Positions 20,715 through 52,551 of a stretch of DNA of 64,000 nt are shown in pieces. The notes below the pieces were generated by a model. It was not told the origin of the DNA and made no database searches. It saw only the letters and a list, made by a program, of their open reading frames with translations. The position numbers and the translations under genes are program-made. This stretch comes from a virus. The stretch's first letter is position 1, and each line of letters opens with the position of its first letter. The stretch is taken from UHGV virus genome UHGV-0293664; one strand, 5' to 3'.

Positions 20715-20933
20715 TTACAGATCTCCAACAACTTCCCAAATACCCCAGTGAGCATCCATATCCTTGATAAAGTATCTTTCTCCACGGTTTGTCCACACAC
20801 CTATCCCAACTTTACCATCTATCCCATTGTATACATCTGCCTCATACTCTTTGCCCGGTGTAAAGTGTACACCCATCATAAGGGCTGTTATTCCGTTAGG
20901 ATTTTTAAATTTAACAAATTTTACTTTGCTCAT
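20715..20933 (-). CDS. Small hypothetical protein
   Basis: 72 aa; shares IKDxDxxWG-type motif with small proteins near the polymerase gene. Confidence 0.45.
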   Translation of the reverse strand: MSKVKFVKFKNPNGITALMMGVHFTPGKEYEADVYNGIDGKVGIGVWTNRGERYFIKDMDAHWGIWEVVGDL

Positions 20934-41421: not shown

Positions 41422-42156
41422 ATGAACGAGTTCAGAGATCACTGTGTAGCCAATCACTTGTGGTCAGAGATATTGGAGTATGACGGTCAAAATCTTTTTT
41501 GGAAGATAGACATTCTGGCAGGTAGCGGTGTAGGATATGTTAAAACTTCAGCAGGCTCTAGAGCTGACAAGGGGCAAGATGCTGATGGCAGGCCTGTGGT
41601 CAGTCTAGGAAAGCATTGCACTAAAGGTGCCCACGTCATAATTTGGGAAATGTTTAACGGTCCTGTACCGGAAGGGTATGAGGTTGACCACATCAAGGAG
41701 ATAAGAGAAACAGGTGGTGTGGCTGATAACAGTATTCAAAATTTGCAACTGCTCGAGCCTACAGATAACAAAAAGAAAAGTTGCAAGATACCTCGTAGTA
41801 ACAACAAGTCTGGTAGGGTCGGGGTGCACTATTCTGAAGAAAGAGAGGCATGGATAGCTCAAGGCACAGATTCTGCAGGTGAAAGAGTCTGGCTAGGCCA
41901 GTACAGAACTTTTGAAGAGGCAGAGTGGGCAAGAAAGTTCTTCGAAGATAATGGTTTTTCGCACAAGAGTGGAAGAGCCGTGCAGTATAATAACACCAGC
42001 GGTTGCTCAGGGGTGAATTGGGATAAAACCCATGAAAGATGGGTAGCCAGAATTTATGTAGATGGTAAAAGGAAATGCCTTGGGTATTTCAAGAACAGAG
42101 AAGATGCAATAGCTGCAAGAAAGAGTGCTGAGAAGAAACAGGAGGAGACAGTATGA
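41422..42156 (+). CDS. HNH homing endonuclease with AP2 DNA-binding domains
   Basis: EVDHIKEIRETGGVADNSIQNLQLL HNH motif; two AP2-like repeats; inserted between primase-helicase and polymerase. Confidence 0.7.
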   Translation: MNEFRDHCVANHLWSEILEYDGQNLFWKIDILAGSGVGYVKTSAGSRADKGQDADGRPVVSLGKHCTKGAHVIIWEMFNGPVPEGYEVDHIKEIRETGGVADNSIQNLQLLEPTDNKKKSCKIPRSNNKSGRVGVHYSEEREAWIAQGTDSAGERVWLGQYRTFEEAEWARKFFEDNGFSHKSGRAVQYNNTSGCSGVNWDKTHERWVARIYVDGKRKCLGYFKNREDAIAARKSAEKKQEETV

Positions 42157-44930
42157 GTAATTGGTGCTTCGACTTGGAGGCCTCCGGGCTTTTGGAAGAC
42201 CCAGATCTTTATTATCACTGCGGTCTGTTTAAAGAGCTGAATAAGAACCGTTTTATGCTGTTCCTTCCTCTAAATGACCGCACACACTACTCCGAGGAGG
42301 ATATAGAGAAGGCTAAGAACTTTATTCTGGCAAAGAAAACTCTTTATAAAGATTTTGAAGTTCGCATAGCAGATTTTTCGGAGTTGGAAGGTTGGCTTAC
42401 AGGCAATTCCGACTGGTCACCAACAGCTTTGAACTGCCATAACTGCTACAGTTATGACTTTATGCTAATGGAAAGATTGTCCGGTATTCATTTTGATATG
42501 TTCCGTGATCCTAAATGCATGGGGACTATCAACGACCACCAGGTTAACCTGTTTGATACGTTGGCGATGAGCCGAATCTTGTGGCCTGATCGCCCTTTAC
42601 CAAAAGGTTGTCCGGACTCTGTATTCAACCCGGTTACTAAGAAAATGCAGCCTGTTGGTCCTCACGGCCTTATGGCATGGGGCTACGCCCTTGGTAACCA
42701 GAAAGTTCAAATTGATGACTGGCGTGATCTTCCGTTGTGGAAGTATGTGGATCGTGTATTCGAGGACGTTATCATCCAAGAGCTGCTCTGGAAAGAGCTG
42801 GTAGCGGAATCAAAAGGTGTATTCTACGGCAAATCTGACATGCAGAACTTTATGTACGATCCTGCCAAAGAGAAGCCGAAAGGGTTCAAGAAGATCACCT
42901 GGAAGAACGCATTACGCCGAGGCATGCTGCAGCACTTCCTGATGGAGCTGCAGGCCCGTCAGGGTGTGTATTTCGACATAGATGGAGCTATTGCTTTACG
43001 TGACCGTTGCGATGCGTGGATGAAAGAGATCGCTGATCGTGTTGAACCTCAACTTCCTTTAAAAGAGTTGTCAATGTCTCAGCGGCCCAAGTTCCCTGAA
43101 AAGCCGTTTAACCAAGATGGGACAATCTCCAATAATGGTTGGAAATGGTTAAAAGATAAGCTTGGCTATCCTGTGGACATGAGCGCTTTAGAGTTCAAAG
43201 CCCCGCCTAAGCGAGCATTTACCTCCACAGGGGATGTCAGTAAGATGGGGATAAAGTGGTGTGAAGAGATGGGCTGCAAAGACCCAGATAAGATGGCTGA
43301 TTTCTTGAGAGGCTATATTAAGGGCACCTCCACACCACAACCTTTACCTAAAGAGCTAATGGATCAGGCAATAAGTGATCTACAGCAGAAGCGAATGCCG
43401 GACTGCAAGATACCTATGAAAATCAGCAATCAGGACGACATTAAGAGATACCTGATCAGTGCTGGTTGGCTTCCGACAATGTGGAGAACTAAGGATGTAA
43501 CTAAAGACAGCAAGAAGAAAGCTCTACCTGATGCAGATGTTGATGCACGAGTGTATGCATATATGGACGAGCTTTTAGAGTCAGAGTATTGTGACCTAAT
43601 TATCAACTTCTGGAACAAAACTGATGCTAAGTTCCAGACAACCGTGCACAAGTTCCGAAGCTTTCCTAACTCTGAAAGGATTAAAAAGGAAGTATTCGGG
43701 AAAATACGTAGAAAAGCTAGGACACTTATTACTTCTCCGCAGCTGAAAGATACGTTTGGACACCTATGCCCGAATCTTGAAAAATTGAACGGGGAGATGG
43801 CTAAAGATATCGTCTTGTGGTTATCATTGCGAAACCGCAGATCGGTCCTTGATCCAATCAAGGAGGATAAGGTTGATACTGGTCTTCTTAATCACCCACG
43901 TTTGAAGATTGACCATAAGCTTCCGGCTAAAAGCTCTGGATTAACAAACACTTCCAGACAGAAACACAGTATTTGTGCAAACATGCCTAAACCATCTCCT
44001 AAAGTGGTTATGGGTAAAGAGATGCGCAGTCTGTGGGGTGTTCCTCCAGGATACTTTGAGATCGGTATTGACGGGTCCAACTTAGAGCAGCTTATCGGGG
44101 CTTGGGGTGCCTTTGAGTTCGACAACGGCTTGTATTATGATGTTGTAAGTAACGGGGACGCACACCAAAACAATGCTGAGGCATATACAAAAGTAGCAGG
44201 CAGAGAGGTGTCTCGTAACGACGGTAAACCTATCACGTATGGGGTTATGTATGGGGCACAAAAAGACAAAGTTGCAGACATGCTGGATATCTCCCCAGAG
44301 TTGGGACAAAGGGTAATCGATGCACTTTGGGATGCCAACCCCGGTCTTAAGGGGCGTAAAGAAGATCTGGAGAAATTCTGGGAAGCAACGGGTAAGAAGT
44401 TTATCTACTCTTTTGATGGTCATGCTATCTGGACCCGATCTAAACACTCTTTACTTAATGCATACCAACAGAATGGTGGTGCATCGTTGTGTGACTTAGT
44501 TGGGATACTCATGCACCACCAAATGGTGAAGCGCGGGTGGTACGATGAAGGTGTTCGTCGTATTATTTATTACCATGACGAATATCAGCTTCAAGTCCCT
44601 GACACACCTAAGTATAAGACTGTGTACACCTTCGACACAATTGAAGAACTGGAAGCATTTAAGGCAGAGCAGGAGGCCAAACTTCATGTGTTCGACGGTC
44701 ATAAGTACAAAAAGGCACGCAAGGATGAGGACGGAAACGAAGTGGTTGACAGAGACGGAAACACGGTGTACGATCCTATCCTGAACGATGACGGAAAGCT
44801 TGAACTTATCTGGAGCCCTGTGGGTGAAATGGTGGTGCATTGCTTCTGGCAAGCTTCTAAAATGATGGGAGTCCCGTTCCAGATCACAGGTGAATACTTG
44901 TGCGGTCGTAATTGGGGTGATTGTCACTAA
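42153..44930 (+). CDS. Family A DNA polymerase with 3'-5' exonuclease domain
   Basis: Exo I FDLEASG; K...YGVMYG motif B-like; YYHDE motif C-like. Confidence 0.8.
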   Translation: MSNWCFDLEASGLLEDPDLYYHCGLFKELNKNRFMLFLPLNDRTHYSEEDIEKAKNFILAKKTLYKDFEVRIADFSELEGWLTGNSDWSPTALNCHNCYSYDFMLMERLSGIHFDMFRDPKCMGTINDHQVNLFDTLAMSRILWPDRPLPKGCPDSVFNPVTKKMQPVGPHGLMAWGYALGNQKVQIDDWRDLPLWKYVDRVFEDVIIQELLWKELVAESKGVFYGKSDMQNFMYDPAKEKPKGFKKITWKNALRRGMLQHFLMELQARQGVYFDIDGAIALRDRCDAWMKEIADRVEPQLPLKELSMSQRPKFPEKPFNQDGTISNNGWKWLKDKLGYPVDMSALEFKAPPKRAFTSTGDVSKMGIKWCEEMGCKDPDKMADFLRGYIKGTSTPQPLPKELMDQAISDLQQKRMPDCKIPMKISNQDDIKRYLISAGWLPTMWRTKDVTKDSKKKALPDADVDARVYAYMDELLESEYCDLIINFWNKTDAKFQTTVHKFRSFPNSERIKKEVFGKIRRKARTLITSPQLKDTFGHLCPNLEKLNGEMAKDIVLWLSLRNRRSVLDPIKEDKVDTGLLNHPRLKIDHKLPAKSSGLTNTSRQKHSICANMPKPSPKVVMGKEMRSLWGVPPGYFEIGIDGSNLEQLIGAWGAFEFDNGLYYDVVSNGDAHQNNAEAYTKVAGREVSRNDGKPITYGVMYGAQKDKVADMLDISPELGQRVIDALWDANPGLKGRKEDLEKFWEATGKKFIYSFDGHAIWTRSKHSLLNAYQQNGGASLCDLVGILMHHQMVKRGWYDEGVRRIIYYHDEYQLQVPDTPKYKTVYTFDTIEELEAFKAEQEAKLHVFDGHKYKKARKDEDGNEVVDRDGNTVYDPILNDDGKLELIWSPVGEMVVHCFWQASKMMGVPFQITGEYLCGRNWGDCH

Positions 44931-44946
44931 TGTAAACTATCAACAC

Positions 44947-45264
44947 ATGGAAGTGTTGTTGAGCAAAGAGGAGACTTTTATGGTAGTAGAACCAACAAAA
45001 ACATTTACATCCATGACTATTCCTGTTATTATGCAGGTGGAGTGTGTTCAGGTATCTCAAGTGTGGCCTGGCACCAAAATCCCGACAGGGCCTGATTTCT
45101 TTCAGGTTGGCAAAGTGTACAATGTCTGGAAGGCACCAGATTGTTACCCTTTCATCAAAGATGACCGTGGGATGCTGTGGTATCTTGGAAATGATTTGAC
45201 ACTGCACCTTGGGAATGCTATTATTGCAGTATTCAGACTTAACAAGAAGGAGACTGATCAATGA
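44947..45264 (+). CDS. Small protein, dispersed paralog family
   Basis: 105 aa from ATG 44947; IKDDRGMLWYL motif. Confidence 0.5.
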   Translation: MEVLLSKEETFMVVEPTKTFTSMTIPVIMQVECVQVSQVWPGTKIPTGPDFFQVGKVYNVWKAPDCYPFIKDDRGMLWYLGNDLTLHLGNAIIAVFRLNKKETDQ

Positions 45265-45488
45265 CGACTTTGGTTAAAGCTACCTTTGTAGAAGAAAAGA
45301 TGACAGACCTGTCATTCTTTAAAGAAGGAAAGACCTACGAGGTTTATTACGATAAAGCTCGTGCAAATAAAATGATTAAAGACGAGGAAGGGGTTGCCTG
45401 GCTTATCTCCCATCTGGCAAACGGTGAGTATCATATCTACGGAACCACCCTGCTTGCCAAGTTTGTAGCTGTTGAAGAGGACCTATGA
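45261..45488 (+). CDS. Small protein, dispersed paralog family
   Basis: 75 aa; ATGA overlap; IKDEEGVAWLI motif. Confidence 0.5.
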   Translation: MTTLVKATFVEEKMTDLSFFKEGKTYEVYYDKARANKMIKDEEGVAWLISHLANGEYHIYGTTLLAKFVAVEEDL

Positions 45489-45679
45489 AAGTAAAGTATC
45501 TGGCTGAGGGTATGAGTAGGTATTTCACCCTTGGTGAAGAATATTGGCCATTTACAAGCAACGGCGATGTCTACGTGAAAGATAATTTCGGCACGCCATG
45601 GTTTTTGCACTCTAACGGGTTAGGGTATTCTATTTATCGCAGTGCAATGAGCGACACAACCCTTGCAGAGTTTGTATAG
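45485..45679 (+). CDS. Small protein, dispersed paralog family
   Basis: 64 aa; ATGA overlap; VKDNFGTPWFL motif. Confidence 0.5.
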   Translation: MKVKYLAEGMSRYFTLGEEYWPFTSNGDVYVKDNFGTPWFLHSNGLGYSIYRSAMSDTTLAEFV

Positions 45680-45689
45680 AGGAGGTAGA

Positions 45690-46061
45690 ATGTTAGTAAA
45701 AGGTACTCACACAGTCAAACAGCGTATTGAAGTTGAGATTGATGATTGTGAGCTGAAGCATATTCTACGGTCATGCTCCAACGTTTTGCTCCTTGGTATT
45801 CTCCAGGAGCGAGCGGAGAACGAGTTCTTAAATGCATTGGCAGGCCGCCCTGGTGACTTCTGTGTGCGTAAGCGTGGTGACAACAAGTCATGGCTGTGGG
45901 AGATAGACGCAGAATGGGATTACCACAAAAATGAGGGTATAGATGAGCCTATTCGTGAATTGACAGACAAAGAGATTCAGATGTACAATGAAGTTTGTCA
46001 TTGGGCAAGACGTCAACAAATTTACCTCGACCCTGTGTGGATGATTGAAAATAGCCATTGA
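45690..46061 (+). CDS. Hypothetical protein
   Basis: 123 aa from ATG 45690 with GAGGAGG RBS. Confidence 0.5.
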   Translation: MLVKGTHTVKQRIEVEIDDCELKHILRSCSNVLLLGILQERAENEFLNALAGRPGDFCVRKRGDNKSWLWEIDAEWDYHKNEGIDEPIRELTDKEIQMYNEVCHWARRQQIYLDPVWMIENSH

Positions 46062-46086
46062 CAAGAAGTAAGATTAGATATAAGAT
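46058..46086 (+). promoter_or_regulatory. sigma70-like promoter
   Basis: TTGACA, 17-nt spacer, TAAGAT. Confidence 0.5.
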
Positions 46087-46137
46087 GCTTCACACAAACA
46101 GAGCGTTGATTTTTAAATAACTAAGGAGACTGCCAAG

Positions 46138-46392
46138 ATGAAAATTACTTTGAAGCCAGAATGCGTTGCAAATGACCGAGCTTTTAAAGATTGCACAGTC
46201 GGTGCAATTTATGAAGCGGAGTTTTGTGAGAACCCTCTGGTAAAAGCCCTTCTGGAAGAAGGGGCCCCTTTATCACAAGAAGAGATTGATGAGCTGGAAA
46301 ACTCAGCACAGTGCCTTACCTTTAAAGATGACGAAGGAGATTCTGTCTGGTGCACTGTTAATGAAGTAGTTTTTGTAAAACCTGAACATTAA
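46138..46392 (+). CDS. Small acidic protein
   Basis: 84 aa; AAGGAGA RBS; FKDDEGDSVWC motif. Confidence 0.5.
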   Translation: MKITLKPECVANDRAFKDCTVGAIYEAEFCENPLVKALLEEGAPLSQEEIDELENSAQCLTFKDDEGDSVWCTVNEVVFVKPEH

Positions 46393-46395
46393 TAC

Positions 46396-46424
46396 TTGAC
46401 AACAGTGATGGGGCCTAATATAAT
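46396..46424 (+). promoter_or_regulatory. Consensus sigma70 promoter
   Basis: TTGACA, 17-nt spacer, TATAAT; -10 flanked by GGGCC/GGCCC inverted repeat. Confidence 0.6.
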
Positions 46425-46455
46425 GGCCCTATCGAAACGAAAGGGGACCACAGCA

Positions 46456-46716
46456 ATGACCAAACAATATCAACGAATTAAAGCCAAGGTTAAGCCAGAC
46501 TATCTGGAAAAGGACTCTGCTTTTCGGGACTGCACAGCCGACAAAGTTTACACAGGGGCTGTCCTGTTGAACGATAAACTTGAAGTAGATGTGCTGGGTA
46601 AAGAGGCCGTTATCGAGGATGACAACGGTGACTGTGTTTTCTGCACCACACGGGAGCTAGAAGTCTTAGAATACTTCGGTGAAATCTTCAACTCCTTAGA
46701 CGACGAGGAAGCGTGA
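46456..46716 (+). CDS. Small acidic protein
   Basis: 86 aa from ATG 46456; track ORF start lies inside the promoter; IEDDNGDCVFC motif. Confidence 0.5.
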   Translation: MTKQYQRIKAKVKPDYLEKDSAFRDCTADKVYTGAVLLNDKLEVDVLGKEAVIEDDNGDCVFCTTRELEVLEYFGEIFNSLDDEEA

Positions 46717-47105
46717 TGAAAAATATTTGGGATATTGATATCTTTGAAGCCTCTAAGCTTGACGGTGCTGATGGAGTGATTATGGTGTCTGACGGCAAGG
46801 CAACACTAACTTCCGGAGATATCATCTATGCCTTGGACGAGCTGGCGCTTCTGAAATCTACCGGTAACACTTTGGAGGAGCGTCTTCAAGGCTTCGCTTT
46901 CAAAGAAGGTACAAATACCGCCATGATGTGCACCACACGGACAGTTCAGGTTGGTAACGGTGTCTATATGATCATTGCGGTGTGTCCTAAATTCAGCAAC
47001 GTCAACAAAGATGATGCTGACGCTGTCAACGATGTGGTTGTTCTCTTCGTGGGTGACGCTATGGCAGATCTGATGAATGCAGGAGAAGCAGCAAATGAAG
47101 ACTGA
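46713..47105 (+). CDS. Hypothetical protein
   Basis: 130 aa; ATGA overlap. Confidence 0.5.
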   Translation: MMKNIWDIDIFEASKLDGADGVIMVSDGKATLTSGDIIYALDELALLKSTGNTLEERLQGFAFKEGTNTAMMCTTRTVQVGNGVYMIIAVCPKFSNVNKDDADAVNDVVVLFVGDAMADLMNAGEAANED

Positions 47106-47397
47106 AAACATCACCCCCGCAGGGTTCTTAAAAGTATACCGTGAACTGCTATATACTACAGAGGACAGCGTTCTAGAGTATCCAGAATATCTTTTGCTGT
47201 ATAAGTATCTGCAGGAGGCTGGTGAAAATCTGCCAGTTAGTGCAGAAGGTGGTCCGAACTGGATATACAGCGCATGGAGAAAGGTTGACATTCTCCCAGA
47301 CCCAGGTAAAGATATGGTAGTTTGGCAGCTTATCAACAACATCGGGATTCCAATCTTTGATGAAGCTGTTAAAATCTATTTTGAACTTGACGATTAA
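47095..47397 (+). CDS. Hypothetical protein
   Basis: 100 aa from ATG 47095 with GGAGAAG RBS. Confidence 0.45.
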   Translation: MKTENITPAGFLKVYRELLYTTEDSVLEYPEYLLLYKYLQEAGENLPVSAEGGPNWIYSAWRKVDILPDPGKDMVVWQLINNIGIPIFDEAVKIYFELDD

Positions 47398-47414
47398 TAT
47401 CAGGAGACCTTAAG

Positions 47415-47660
47415 ATGACTGAAGTAGTTGCTCGCGCAGGACAGAAAGTACGTTGTGTTGAAGTAGGTTTTGGTGGCAAAGGGTGTCAAAACTTGACTCA
47501 AGGTAAGGAATACGCTGTTATTTCTGGTGGTGGCGACGAAAGTATTGTGTTCGAGGGCCACATCCTGGATGCTGAAAACTTTGAAATCTTTGACGACGAT
47601 GGGGATCCGATCACCTGCCTGCTGGACGGGAATTGGGGAACTTTTGAAGTGATTGGCTAA
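47415..47660 (+). CDS. Small protein, dispersed paralog family
   Basis: 81 aa; AGGAGA RBS; FDDDGDPITCL motif. Confidence 0.5.
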   Translation: MTEVVARAGQKVRCVEVGFGGKGCQNLTQGKEYAVISGGGDESIVFEGHILDAENFEIFDDDGDPITCLLDGNWGTFEVIG

Positions 47661-47743
47661 CAAATACCTATTGTAATTTGCAGAAGGGGATGCTAAAATA
47701 GTGTCTCCTTTTATGTTGTTCAAATAAAATCGGAGATTCCATA

Positions 47744-48109
47744 ATGGAACAAATGAACGATCAAACGTCGGTTGCGATGAACGAGCAAGAACAACCTCAA
47801 GAATTTTTCTTAGGGTTAAGTAAAGATCAAGTGTCTCTTCTGCTAGTGCTTTCTTCTTTCATGGGAAGACTTCAGGAGCTTACACAACAGCCAGAGGCTG
47901 AACAATTATTCCAGGCTCTGCGTGAAGAAGAAAAATATCGTCGTTTGGACTATGCCTTAGGTTGGGTAGCTCAACAACGAGATATGCTGATGGCCCTCTC
48001 TGGGACCACAAGTTTTGCAATGGGCCTGTTGGCTCAAGTTCAGGACAAATTAATTCAAGCAGGGTTTGCACACACGGCAAACACTAACGAAGAACAAGGA
48101 GACAAATAA
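47744..48109 (+). CDS. Hypothetical protein
   Basis: 121 aa; stop overlaps SSB-like start. Confidence 0.5.
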   Translation: MEQMNDQTSVAMNEQEQPQEFFLGLSKDQVSLLLVLSSFMGRLQELTQQPEAEQLFQALREEEKYRRLDYALGWVAQQRDMLMALSGTTSFAMGLLAQVQDKLIQAGFAHTANTNEEQGDK

Positions 48110-49335
48110 TGAGCGTTATTCAACAATTCGCTAACCCGATGAATCCGCGTGAAACTGTTTTACTGGCTCACGGCATGATTAAACGTGTCAGCATCAAGCC
48201 TATCAAGGGTGCTGATCCTACAACAGGTATTAAAACCACTGTGTGGCAAGGTAAGAAAATTGAATCCAGCCACACCATCTCTTTACTGATTTCTGAACTG
48301 GATTCCTCTGATAACCTGCTTCAAGGTGGTGAAGAAGTTTGGATCAGTATGGGTGATAAGCTGCTTAAACCTGGTCATCAAGACTCTGTCTCTGTTAAAA
48401 TTGATGACAAGTGGGAAACCGTAACGCCGGGATGGATCGTAAATATCCCTTTGAAGGCAAACGAGCATAAAGGTAAGACCTATTACAAAGGCTCACTGGC
48501 TAAGATGGTCAAGCTGGGTGCAGGAGAGGCTCCAGCAGCGACTCAGCAGCAAAAACAGCAACAAGGTGCACAATCACAAGGCCAGAAGCAGAAACCTCAG
48601 CAGAATGCCAATCAGGACGTTTTACGCATCTATGGTGATGTGACTCAGATTGTTGGCAACGTGGTTACTGTTAATGACCACAAGATTGGCGAAGGTGCTA
48701 TGGTTGTCACTGATGAGCAGCTTAAAGACCTGGTGGTAGGTGGTCGTGTTGCAGCCATTGTTGACAAAGACACCGGAAACATTATCAGTGGTTTCAAAGC
48801 CTACCCACCTAAGGAAGAGAACGGCACTCAAGGCTCTGGTGGCAAGCGTAAATCCTCTTACGACCCTATCGGTGTGGAAACGGGGCATAGCATCAATGCG
48901 TTGCAGATCATCCTGGATCGCGGGTTTAAGGTAGACGACCCACTGGGCGTGGCTAAAACACTGCACGTAGTCACCATTGAGCTTAAGAAAGAGTATGCTC
49001 AAGCCACCAACCGAACTGAAGATGAAGTAGGTGCCAGTGTCGGTAATGCGGTGTTGAACGCTTGTCGCCGTATTGACAAGAAAACGAAAGTTGATGATTT
49101 TGCAGCGGCAATTACTGCAGAAGCAAAAGATGTCTTGACTAATCTGGCTGAGCCGTTGTACGATTGGATCAAGAACGGTGCTGGGTCAACTGACCATCAA
49201 GAACCTCAGGCTGCCAAACAGGAAGCAGCTCCACAGCAAAACACTGTAGACGCTCCTCCTGTAAATGATGAGGAAGATGACCCAATGGATCAGAATCCAG
49301 CACAGTACGCCTTTGATGATGACATCCCTTTTTAA
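48109..49335 (+). CDS. Single-stranded DNA-binding protein-like
   Basis: 408 aa; Gln-rich linker; C-terminal DDDIPF matches the E. coli SSB tail tip. Confidence 0.55.
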   Translation: MSVIQQFANPMNPRETVLLAHGMIKRVSIKPIKGADPTTGIKTTVWQGKKIESSHTISLLISELDSSDNLLQGGEEVWISMGDKLLKPGHQDSVSVKIDDKWETVTPGWIVNIPLKANEHKGKTYYKGSLAKMVKLGAGEAPAATQQQKQQQGAQSQGQKQKPQQNANQDVLRIYGDVTQIVGNVVTVNDHKIGEGAMVVTDEQLKDLVVGGRVAAIVDKDTGNIISGFKAYPPKEENGTQGSGGKRKSSYDPIGVETGHSINALQIILDRGFKVDDPLGVAKTLHVVTIELKKEYAQATNRTEDEVGASVGNAVLNACRRIDKKTKVDDFAAAITAEAKDVLTNLAEPLYDWIKNGAGSTDHQEPQAAKQEAAPQQNTVDAPPVNDEEDDPMDQNPAQYAFDDDIPF

Positions 49336-49349
49336 CAATTAGTTAACAT

Positions 49350-49378
49350 AGCCCTGCCCGAAAGGGTGGGGCATTTTT
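49350..49378 (+). terminator. Rho-independent terminator
   Basis: CCCTGCCC-GAAA-GGGTGGGG hairpin then T-run; same as 38638. Confidence 0.75.
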
Positions 49379-49397
49379 GTACAAGGAGATCTGAAAA

Positions 49398-49814
49398 ATG
49401 ACATTAGAAGATATCATTGTTAAACCTGAGAACTATGACCAATACAACCTGTCAACTCAATCTGTAGACCTCGGATGCGCCACAGTCAGTGCATGGCTGG
49501 TTAACGGAAAAGAGCTTGACGAGTGCCTGGAAGCACACATGTCGGTGAATAAATTTCTTGATGAAAATACCCACTGGCTAGAGGGTGCAGGAGTATATGC
49601 TTCATGGTTGGAGAGTATGGGATTCGACTACCAATCTGAAGAGGGGTGGTGGAGCTATTTAGCTATCTGCCCAGAGACGCTGCAATGCTTCATGAAATAC
49701 TCTGAAGATTTGGAGTACCGGGCGGTGGTTGATAGTGCTATTGCCCGTTATAGCCGTAAACCTTTTTCCCACGACATTAAAACTGTGGAAGAATTTGTTG
49801 AAGTTTTCTGTTGA
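49398..49814 (+). CDS. Hypothetical protein
   Basis: 138 aa; AAGGAGA RBS. Confidence 0.5.
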   Translation: MTLEDIIVKPENYDQYNLSTQSVDLGCATVSAWLVNGKELDECLEAHMSVNKFLDENTHWLEGAGVYASWLESMGFDYQSEEGWWSYLAICPETLQCFMKYSEDLEYRAVVDSAIARYSRKPFSHDIKTVEEFVEVFC

Positions 49815-49910
49815 CACAGGTTGAAAGGCGTGCAATTATAACTTCATATAACGGGAGGACGCGATGAACGAAGAAAACTGGGATGTATAACTAACAGGAG
49901 GCCACTGCCC

Positions 49911-50108
49911 ATGATTTATCGAATCCGTGTAAGAGAAGATGCACCAGGCTGTTACTTTGACTGGCGTGGGTGGTGGTTTCTCCACCCGATGGATGGACTC
50001 ACAGATAGAATGCTGGATGCTGCCCTTTATACAGATACCGACATAGAATATAATCTCTATCTGAAGGACGGTATAGATAACGGTCTATTTGAAGCAATTC
50101 CTGTGTAA
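49911..50108 (+). CDS. Small hypothetical protein
   Basis: 65 aa; AGGAGG RBS. Confidence 0.45.
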   Translation: MIYRIRVREDAPGCYFDWRGWWFLHPMDGLTDRMLDAALYTDTDIEYNLYLKDGIDNGLFEAIPV

Positions 50109-50176: not shown

Positions 50177-50602
50177 ATGACCTATGAAATGCCAAAACTG
50201 ATTCGTGACGATGCCCAAAACGCCCACACCTTTATCATGGGCAAACGCATGGATATTATTTGTCATAAAGATTTCTGGGAAGGAAGTTACTTCACAGAGT
50301 ATTTTGGTAAACTGGACAATGGTCTGCTGATCCAGTTCTACACCGATGCGGAAAACAACATTCACTGGGAGTTCGAAACTGAAGATATCCATAAACTTTT
50401 CACCTTCCTCGGTATTAAGGTTGAGGCCAAGTTTGAAGAAGGTGAGTGCGACGATTGTGGATTCTATGAGGTAACAGATTTCTATCTCCCGAGTGGTGAG
50501 AACCTTTACTATGAAAGCCACTTCGGTAACTCCAATATGCCACAGTGCTGGACTGAGTTTTTTGAAATTGCGGAAGAGGAGCTGGCATACCGTGATTATT
50601 GA
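50177..50602 (+). CDS. Hypothetical protein
   Basis: 141 aa; GGAG RBS. Confidence 0.5.
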   Translation: MTYEMPKLIRDDAQNAHTFIMGKRMDIICHKDFWEGSYFTEYFGKLDNGLLIQFYTDAENNIHWEFETEDIHKLFTFLGIKVEAKFEEGECDDCGFYEVTDFYLPSGENLYYESHFGNSNMPQCWTEFFEIAEEELAYRDY

Positions 50603-51050
50603 TACTGTAGAGGGGGATTTAATCTCCCTTTTTAAGAGCGGTGCTGGTCACCTGATCCACGGTTGCAACTGCTTCCACACAATGGGCAAGGGGATAGCAA
50701 AACAGATCGCCCGTGAGTTCCCTCAAGCACTGGCAGCTGACAAAGAGACCAGACATGGTTGCCTAAGTAAACTGGGCGCGTTCTCAAGATGGGAGCACTT
50801 ATCTCCGATAGGTATTGTCTACGGAATAAATCTGTATACTCAGTTCTACCCAGGGCCTAATGCTGAATATTTCTCAATCCTGAAAGGCTTTGAGCGAGTC
50901 AATGAGGTATTCGAGGGATCGACTTTACCATTCTACATCCCTAAGATCGGGTGCGGCATAGGCGGTTTGAAGTGGGAACACGTAGAGGACGTTATTAACC
51001 TTGCCACTTTCGACATAGATATTGTCGTGGTGGAGTACAAAAAGTGTTGA
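50592..51050 (+). CDS. Macro-domain (ADP-ribose binding/processing) protein
   Basis: GTG start after GAGGAG; GAGHLIHGCNCFHTMGKGIAKQI and IGCGIGG resemble macro-domain glycine-rich motifs. Confidence 0.5.
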   Translation: MIIDTVEGDLISLFKSGAGHLIHGCNCFHTMGKGIAKQIAREFPQALAADKETRHGCLSKLGAFSRWEHLSPIGIVYGINLYTQFYPGPNAEYFSILKGFERVNEVFEGSTLPFYIPKIGCGIGGLKWEHVEDVINLATFDIDIVVVEYKKC

Positions 51051-51104: not shown

Positions 51105-51275
51105 GTGGAGACTAAAATCTTAATTCTTGCTGTGGTAGATACAACCGAAGGAGCTATATTCGAATCTGCAGGAGGGTATTTCTACCTACCATACGGAAAA
51201 AGAACTTCCGAGCCAAGTAAAGATTCAATCCTCAAAGTGTTCCCGTGTGCTTTCTGGCTGGAGATTTTGGTATAA
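51105..51275 (+). CDS. Small hypothetical protein
   Basis: 56 aa ORF below track cutoff; GTG start after AAGAGAGGAGAG. Confidence 0.3.
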   Translation: METKILILAVVDTTEGAIFESAGGYFYLPYGKRTSEPSKDSILKVFPCAFWLEILV

Positions 51276-51301
51276 GATTGCAGAGGATTTGGGAGAGAAT
51301 T

Positions 51302-51496
51302 ATGAGAAACAAGAAAGAACTTTACTCTGGTGAGTGGATCAACGATCAACAGGTGGGAGAGGTAACCTGCTTCCGATGTTTTACCAGGTACAATCTTAAA
51401 ACTGCACCAAAAAGTGTTCCAAAGACTGACGGTTATTACATAAAAGAACCTCATTGCCCAAAATGTAAATGCCGATTGTACTGGAGCAATCTGTAA
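51302..51496 (+). CDS. Small zinc-ribbon protein
   Basis: 64 aa; CFRC...CPKCKC pattern; GGAG RBS. Confidence 0.45.
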   Translation: MRNKKELYSGEWINDQQVGEVTCFRCFTRYNLKTAPKSVPKTDGYYIKEPHCPKCKCRLYWSNL

Positions 51497-51762: not shown

Positions 51763-52095
51763 ATGGTAACATTGGAAAGACGTAAAGCTATCGCCGCCAC
51801 ACTGGCAGACATCTTTTGGGATTGCAACTTAAAAGATACCCGAAATTGTGGCGCATCTGTAGATGTATTATTCCCACGGCCCACCATTGTTGCAATGGGC
51901 AACCTGCTCGATGTGGTATATGGAGCATGGGACAAGGAAGGTGGATTCTATATCTGGCAACCTGACTACGGGACCTGGAAAGAGGTTAGTGGTTCTGCGG
52001 ACTTCACTCCTGCAGAGGCTAAAATGGATGGCTGGAAAATCTATGTCGGTAACGACATGGAACTGAAAGGCGAAATTGTTTACTGGTTACCTTAA
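51763..52095 (+). CDS. Hypothetical protein
   Basis: 110 aa; weak RBS. Confidence 0.45.
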   Translation: MVTLERRKAIAATLADIFWDCNLKDTRNCGASVDVLFPRPTIVAMGNLLDVVYGAWDKEGGFYIWQPDYGTWKEVSGSADFTPAEAKMDGWKIYVGNDMELKGEIVYWLP

Positions 52096-52115: not shown

Positions 52116-52361
52116 ATGAACAAAGGGTGGACATTTGTAGACGGCGTTAAAAACATGCCTCTAGGAAAGTATATTGTAGCCATGGCAGATGAGAATGGCA
52201 AGGTGGATTTCGGAGTTTGCGAGGTTGTTCTTGCAGGATCTGGTGACTATGCTCACAAAACTGGGATAATTAACGGTCATTTCTACTTTGATTACAACCC
52301 TGTTGTGGCGTATATGGCTATGCCAGAGTTAGAGCTCCCAAAGGAGGGTGCAGATGTTTAA
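52116..52361 (+). CDS. Small protein, dispersed paralog family
   Basis: 81 aa; CAGGAGA RBS; ADENGKVDFGVC motif. Confidence 0.5.
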   Translation: MNKGWTFVDGVKNMPLGKYIVAMADENGKVDFGVCEVVLAGSGDYAHKTGIINGHFYFDYNPVVAYMAMPELELPKEGADV

Positions 52362-52551
52362 GCTTAAATCTGCATGGAACATCGCTGTGGGGGACGAGAT
52401 CCGTATCCCAGGTGGAAAGACCATTATGAAGATATCTCGTATCGAGTACGAAGGTGATCGTGTATTTCATATCTTTGCAGAAGATGGTCGAGAAATTTAT
52501 ATACAGGCAGGCTCTCACATCTATATCTGTAAGAAAGGGGACGACAAATGA
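52354..52551 (+). CDS. Small hypothetical protein
   Basis: 65 aa from ATG 52354 with AAGGAGGG RBS. Confidence 0.45.
   Translation: MFKLKSAWNIAVGDEIRIPGGKTIMKISRIEYEGDRVFHIFAEDGREIYIQAGSHIYICKKGDDK

Follow-up and report, generated by a model that had tools for sequence, protein, structure and literature searches.

Small genes behind the DNA polymerase of an rV5-like coliphage as probable diverged paralogs of one superfamily of SH3-like barrels

In the 113 phage records that match positions 42000-50000 of virus genome UHGV-0293664 (90–99% identity over at least 80% of the stretch), all genes downstream of the DNA polymerase carry the annotation 'hypothetical protein'. A preliminary description of this DNA, analysed here as a window of 64,000 nucleotides from an rV5-like (Vequintavirus) coliphage, had noticed a motif, (K/E/D)D-x-x-G-x-x-W/V-hydrophobic, in eight small open reading frames (ORFs) and had proposed that they form an expanded and diversified phage-specific family of small domains. 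The question raised by this locus is whether these ORFs, named A, B, C, E, F, I, J and K below, are truly related or merely share a short string. All eight are present at the coordinates given for them, with the strings quoted. The proposed family holds for seven of the eight, together with members that had not been listed, while J is unrelated to it. We consider A, B, C, I and K likely to be diverged paralogs of a single phage superfamily of SH3-like beta-barrels, to which E and F, joined more weakly, probably also belong.

Six of the genes lie on the plus strand behind the polymerase and have counterparts in phage rV5: A (44980..45264, 94 residues, ORF224), B (45261..45488, 75 residues, ORF223), C (45485..45679, 64 residues, ORF222), E (46138..46392, 84 residues, ORF220), F (46456..46716, 86 residues, ORF219) and I (47415..47660, 81 residues, ORF216). 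J (52116..52361, 81 residues, ORF203) lies further along the same strand, and K (20715..20933, 72 residues) is on the minus strand, its counterpart being the N-terminal domain of the 135-residue rV5 ORF25. Gene A starts at 44980 in both the PHROG and GenBank gene calls, the start of 44947 given previously being an in-frame upstream ATG. We revised the start of F to the ATG at 46456 because a perfect sigma-70 consensus promoter (TTGACA-17-TATAAT) occupies 46396..46424 on the plus strand in front of this gene; the TTG 'start' of a longer, 106-residue ORF is the -35 box of that promoter, and a GGGGA ribosome-binding site precedes the ATG, so that the upstream starts in public annotations (for example HdK5_00047, 101 residues) are probably too long. 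Compared with two diverged rV5-like contigs, the candidates display ratios of nonsynonymous to synonymous substitution (dN/dS) of 0.01–0.28, with genes A (0.01–0.03) and C as constrained as the polymerase, and are thus real genes under purifying selection.

The strict form of the motif, [KED]D-x-x-G-x-x-[WV]-hydrophobic, was found six times in a scan of all window ORFs of at least 40 residues, compared to 0.63 ± 0.79 matches (maximum four) in 2000 shuffles of the coding-strand ORFs (25,629 residues). Five of these matches lie in neighbouring genes within 1.8 kb, namely A (FIKDDRGMLWYL, 45151-45186), B (MIKDEEGVAWLI, 45372-45407), C (YVKDNFGTPWFL, 45572-45607), E (TFKDDEGDSVWC, 46318-46353) and F (VIEDDNGDCVFC, 46609-46644), and this clustering, together with the excess over shuffled sequence, shows that their occurrence is non-random. 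The sixth, KARKDEDGNEVV in the C-terminal part of the DNA polymerase, was dismissed as a chance match: about 0.6 are to be expected, and the protein that contains it is a 925-residue enzyme. In gene I (hairpin EIFDDDGDPITC, 47583-47618) the string FDDDGDPITCL breaks the strict pattern at two positions, while profile alignment places it in register with the motif of A, B and C with no insertion or deletion (G63 with G44, D60 with D41). The position of the motif is therefore conserved for the family as a whole, strictly in five genes and in relaxed form in I, but not in the way first described for the other two ORFs. In the family alignment of K it is the hairpin GVWTNRGERYFI (20766-20801) that occupies the motif position, and the quoted FIKDMDAHWGI (20739-20771) aligns after strand 4; the string of J, ADENGKVDFGVC, neither fits the motif nor lies in a protein that matches any family profile.

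Relationships beyond the motif emerge from profile searches. A deep hidden Markov model (HMM) was made from proteins resembling I, with A, B, C, E, F and J excluded. Among all 721 window ORFs it ranked I first (E-value 3e-25), followed by K (4e-8), C (1.2e-3), E (4.5e-3), F (0.018) and B (0.024); an ORF absent from the earlier list, 52348..52551, ranked seventh (0.09), and A (1.4) and J (3.6) were unranked, the latter within the range of the controls, which comprised genes D, G and H, lying between the candidates, and eight other small neighbours. When the same profile was compared by hhalign, the combined A/B/C alignment (hereafter ABC) gave E = 6e-6 (85%), C alone 1e-4 (58%), the combined E and F alignment (EF) 1.1e-4 (57%, over 45 collinear columns), F 1.2e-3 (19%), B 1.8e-3 (15%) and A 1.9e-3 (15%), compared to E ≥ 0.033 and under 2% for ten control genes; J fell within the control range (0.057, 1%). 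K reached 96.6%, and is thus a member by profile even though the string first quoted for it is not the equivalent hairpin. The link between ABC and the I-like family was reproduced with an independent alignment (83%), and is carried by strand 1 and a (L/F)TxGKxYxV strand in addition to the hairpin. This strand appears as QVGKVYNV in A (45103-45126, within a barrel domain spanning residues ~36–94), KEGKTYEV in B (45321-45344), TQGKEYAV in I (47496-47519) and TVGAIYEA in E, where an insert of ~30 residues separates it from the hairpin.

Profiles were also iterated in the manner of jackhmmer over a pool of 4,297 sequences. Searches seeded with ABC, B alone or C alone recruited I-like representatives, then I itself (3e-8), then K and rV5 ORF25, and iteration from K alone converged on the same ~170 sequences as B and C, while 11 control families, J, Gp54 of phage Bas11 (discussed below), A alone, E, F and EF recruited nothing from this pool. 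The three converged profiles returned identical top eight window ORFs, namely I, K, B, C, E, A, F and 52348..52551, with E-values of 1.4e-6 for B and 1.6e-6 for C; the ABC-seeded profile gave 2.9e-5 for E and 3.2e-5 for A, window ORFs outside these eight being at or above ~0.4, and the K-seeded profile gave 1.6e-3 for E and 9e-3 for F. J is missing from every one of these match lists. In addition, some Drexlerviridae proteins bridge the two groups, matching the ABC profile as well as the I-like one; bas09_0074, with FVYDDHGDTWAI, is an example. The small ORF 52348..52551 (plus strand, 67 residues, with HIFAEDGREIYI at 52468-52503) is a possible but weakly linked additional member, with E-values of 0.05–0.09 in family profiles and 9% by hhalign against the deep I-like profile.

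Within the window the members fall into three sub-groups, A/B/C, E/F and I/K. PHROG assigns each ORF to a separate family of unknown function (phrog_12922 for A), with weak cross-matches pairing B with C, E with F and I with K. In-window phmmer and hhalign with shallow ortholog profiles link E to F (2e-8 and 95%), A to B (8e-4, 86%), B to C (0.1, 5.9%) and I to K (0.5–0.9, 8.7%), but link J, which has a family of its own (phrog_7252), to none of the candidates. E and F are clear paralogs of each other, and the link from this pair to the rest of the family is moderately supported. B and C are collinear from end to end, including GEYHIYG...TLLAKFV in the one and LGYSIYR...TTLAEFV in the other. 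Both E and F are confined to rV5-like phages; tblastn found E in these phages only, and EF consequently has no bridge sequence. One further gene, 51763..52095, scored 14% against A with shallow profiles and was dropped as a candidate because no deeper profile matched it. By eye J resembles what we take to be DUF551-type phage proteins; Pfam gives no hit and we make no such claim.

Predicted structures, which cover B and I, suggest what the conserved residues do. The model of B is a six-stranded barrel with a prominent beta1-beta2 loop that superposes closely on PDB 9AXB, the structure of Gp54 of Escherichia phage Bas11, while the model of I is a five-stranded barrel with SH3 strand order and structural similarity to SH3 and KOW domains. 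Strands 1–4 follow the same order of elements in both models, and B has an extra strand in place of the short connection after strand 4. The predicted fold is thus not uniform but comes in two variants, SH3-like with five strands in I and Gp54-like with six in B. In both models the motif forms the strand 3-turn-strand 4 hairpin, and GKxYxV starts strand 2. The motif thus has a structural role: it forms the tight 'distal' hairpin between beta3 and beta4 of an SH3-like barrel, in which a hydrophobic strand, a D-D-x-G turn and an aromatic or hydrophobic strand succeed one another, and the LTxGKxYxV signature strand precedes it. The DDxG hairpin and (L/F)TxGKxYxV strand are scaffold elements and not a catalytic site, and the whole SH3-like core of ~50 residues (strand 1, LTxGKxYxV strand and DDxG hairpin) defines the family better than the hairpin motif does.

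A, B and C are predicted to share the rare fold of Gp54, a 66-residue non-essential protein of unknown function whose six-stranded barrel has a very rare topology, the closest fold being the SH3 domain of RecD (PMC11578894). Gp54 directly activates CapRelSJ46, a fused toxin-antitoxin defence, and its close homologues from Bas5, Bas8, Bas10 and SECphi27 fail to do so (Nature 2024, PMC11578894). Gp54 has the barrel fold in common with the B model, but it lacks the D-D-x-G turn and belongs to a different PHROG (phrog_7421, where B and C match phrog_3249), and a Gp54 HMM finds nothing in the window or in the close relative HdK5. A Foldseek search of the B model against BFVD returned many uncharacterized small proteins of Drexlerviridae and Vequintavirinae, several per genome, at template modelling (TM) scores of 0.6–0.8.

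The family extends well beyond this phage. With B and I as queries, word-indexed searches went no further than close orthologs (identity 76% or more). By tblastn, weak relatives of I and K were found in Drexlerviridae (Klebsiella phage SCNJ1-C, Bas09 PaulSarasin, Webervirus Chell) and a K variant of ~50% identity in most rV5-like phages; alignment of the I/K relatives recovered 30 proteins, and an exhaustive HMMER search then recovered 152 cluster representatives at E ≤ 1e-3, so that the superfamily comprises at least 152 cluster representatives. Most I-like representatives are stand-alone proteins of 60–80 residues with the consensus MKKGDKVKCV..YLTxGKxYEVxAGxGD..FEIxDDxGDxIYC..CAHGxWELV. They make up an unnamed family (phrog_4927, phrog_10169 and related PHROGs) of Drexlerviridae and Vequintavirinae, often with several copies per genome, of which I is a clear and K a divergent member, which B and C reach by profile iteration and whose members have the strand and hairpin signatures in common. 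Neither the GD loop nor the CxH..WE C-terminus of this family is present in the ABC type, which differs further in its extra strand, and gene E is set apart from the family by its insert. The I-like family has no described function, solved structure or Pfam model. A Pfam scan of the candidates gave nothing above the gathering threshold; among 93 I-like members scanned there were four weak matches to DUF6501, one to DUF7938 and one to DUF7244, and no Pfam family covers these proteins. Nor did the I/K and ABC alignments have a significant match in the PDB, whether it was searched by sequence or by profile. Among SH3-like small barrels (SH3, KOW, Tudor/chromo-like and FeoA domains), no named SH3, KOW or Tudor family of Pfam displays a sequence relation to the window family, whose members, unlike those domains, are stand-alone viral proteins and not modules of larger ones, apart from a few tandem-repeat proteins.

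Searches of the rest of the window and of related phages thus yielded further members. Two more lie in the complete genome of HdK5 outside the window: HdK5_00187 (78 residues; HdK5 121979-122215, L022 26979-27215), which sits between nrdD and nrdG of the anaerobic ribonucleotide reductase, matches the ABC HMM at 9e-7 and has C and B as closest window relatives, and HdK5_00227 (HdK5 135699-135950, L022 40699-40950), which matches at about 3e-3. The copy number is about ten per genome. HdK5_00187 has the same length as a BFVD match from phage isim labelled 'putative minor capsid protein', a label that looks wrong. In the distant Vequintavirinae Seu621, PVP-SE1 and CR3, synteny gave no orthologs, the genes behind the polymerase differ and the family profiles match next to nothing. 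The K locus is built of modules. A 135-residue protein in which a ~50%-identical K-like domain is followed by a C-terminal extension of ~55 residues (L009 2465-2872, rV5 ORF25) is found in most rV5-like phages, the domain stands alone in the present phage (72 residues), and a 125-residue hybrid also exists (P0043). Tandem repeats of two to five domains occur in proteins of 126–396 residues (P0096, P0101, P0158, P0064, P0066), with linkers rich in A, T, S or D. In Bas09 (L012 2462-3433) a polynucleotide kinase gene is directly flanked by one I-like and one ABC-like gene; small genes flank the kinase in Bas11 too (L014 43206-44189), where family profiles did not detect them.

Genomic context is consistent with early expression. 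Genes A to I follow the polymerase on its strand and end at a terminator-like hairpin (47682..47712, plus strand), which closes the block from polymerase to I and has a terminator annotated at its position in HdK5. Sigma-70-like sites are more frequent than expected (35 compared to 20.5 ± 5.2), and besides the perfect promoter in front of F they include a 10/12 match in front of E (46058..46086, plus strand), at the position of the rV5-annotated P220. The family proteins are acidic to neutral and lack any enzyme signature. We tentatively suggest, from context and by analogy, that they are early accessory protein-binding modules, an assignment to which we give somewhat less than an even chance. 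Host-type sigma-70 promoters would drive their early expression alongside the replication genes, and each protein, without being an enzyme, would bind a host or defence protein, as has been proposed for Gp54. Conserved residues would build the scaffold and variable loops carry specificity, the variable parts being the long beta1-beta2 loop, the strand 2-3 loop (long in I and expanded by the insert in E) and the C-terminus, which in the ABC type is predicted to form a sixth strand as in Gp54 of Bas11. Duplication and divergence could then have furnished the phage with a set of specific binders, and by analogy with Gp54 individual copies could be recognised by bacterial sensors such as CapRel.

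We place the explanation as a whole, superfamily and functional suggestion together, at a blended probability of roughly 0.6, and several observations weigh against it. Iteration from E or F never brings in the family, and the strongest links of these two are moderate (57% by hhalign, 2.9e-5 for E and 0.007–0.018 for F with converged and family profiles), while A alone recruits nothing and is tied to the family through B only. A small pool, enriched in I-like sequences, makes the iteration E-values generous, and since the candidates were picked by their motif, the scores of profiles containing it are not fully independent. The models of B and I differ in strand number and 9axb is missing from the top 60 matches of the I model; ABC shows no significant sequence similarity to the Gp54 family (hhalign E = 0.92), so that the fold link could be convergence on a small fold. 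The functional part is supported by context and analogy, and nearly all small genes of the region are acidic, so charge does not discriminate. Much of this would be expected if A/B/C, E/F and I/K were three unrelated small families, alike by convergence because small all-beta proteins tend towards D-D-x-G plus hydrophobic residues for a tight beta-hairpin and towards G-K-x-Y-x-V at the start of a strand, as would the finding that each ORF has a PHROG of its own, that EF scores only 0.7% against ABC by hhalign, that B and I have different top structural neighbours, and that ABC and Gp54 lack any sequence signal although the fold is the same. However, the alignments of ABC to I-like proteins span 26–60 columns, taking in strand 1 and the GKxY strand as well as the hairpin, iteration from B, from C and from K ends in one and the same set of sequences where 11 controls recruit none, bridging sequences match both profiles, and strands 1–4 keep their order in both models. 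We therefore regard threefold convergence as unlikely and favour common descent.

Two other functions were considered. The position of the genes beside the DNA polymerase would suit small barrels that bind nucleic acids (KOW-, Sm- or OapB-like) and so modulate transcription, translation or replication of the phage or its host, although we think this improbable. That they are minor virion or assembly proteins is suggested by one BFVD structural neighbour of B, which bears the label 'putative minor capsid protein' in the rV5-like phage isim; however, this is an unverified database name, the genes lie in a replication/early block behind sigma-70-like promoters, distant from the structural genes and on the opposite strand, and Gp54 of Bas11 is non-essential (PMC11578894), so that we give a virion role very little credence. 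A more specific version of the protein-binding suggestion, that the roughly ten SH3-like or Gp54-like barrels operate at the interface of phage and immunity, with a separate host defence or host factor inhibited by, or sensing, each copy, is conceivable but doubtful.

Other features of the region concern its neighbours. The polymerase gene (42153-44930) is intact here, encoding 925 residues, while in many relatives homing endonuclease genes (HNH, LAGLIDADG or others) interrupt or flank it and it appears in two or three pieces. Gene H (47095-47397), an interspersed non-member, has orthologs with a precomputed Pfam match to DUF7238. The same early block contains a macro-domain protein (50493-51050) and a small protein (51245-51496) whose orthologs match Pfam Phage_zn_bind_2; both are plausibly accessory genes with no relation to the small-barrel family. 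Across the region, sixteen GenBank entries under the name 'Campylobacter phage' (MG0656xx, host C. jejuni) show ~97% identity to rV5-like coliphages, and their host assignments look doubtful.

Large lytic phages carry many small genes without known function, and grouping them aids their study. Here at least seven separate PHROG 'unknowns' of rV5-like phages are merged into one structural family with abundant relatives in T1-like phages, and three of its members are tied by predicted fold to Gp54 of Bas11, the sole relative with experimental data. The family would be worth a Pfam entry; current understanding is not overturned. If these proteins do act at the interface with host immunity, the six-stranded Gp54 barrel would be a common phage fold that evolved from a five-stranded stand-alone SH3-like family, which would provide both an evolutionary origin and a large natural library of variants for a known trigger of CapRel.

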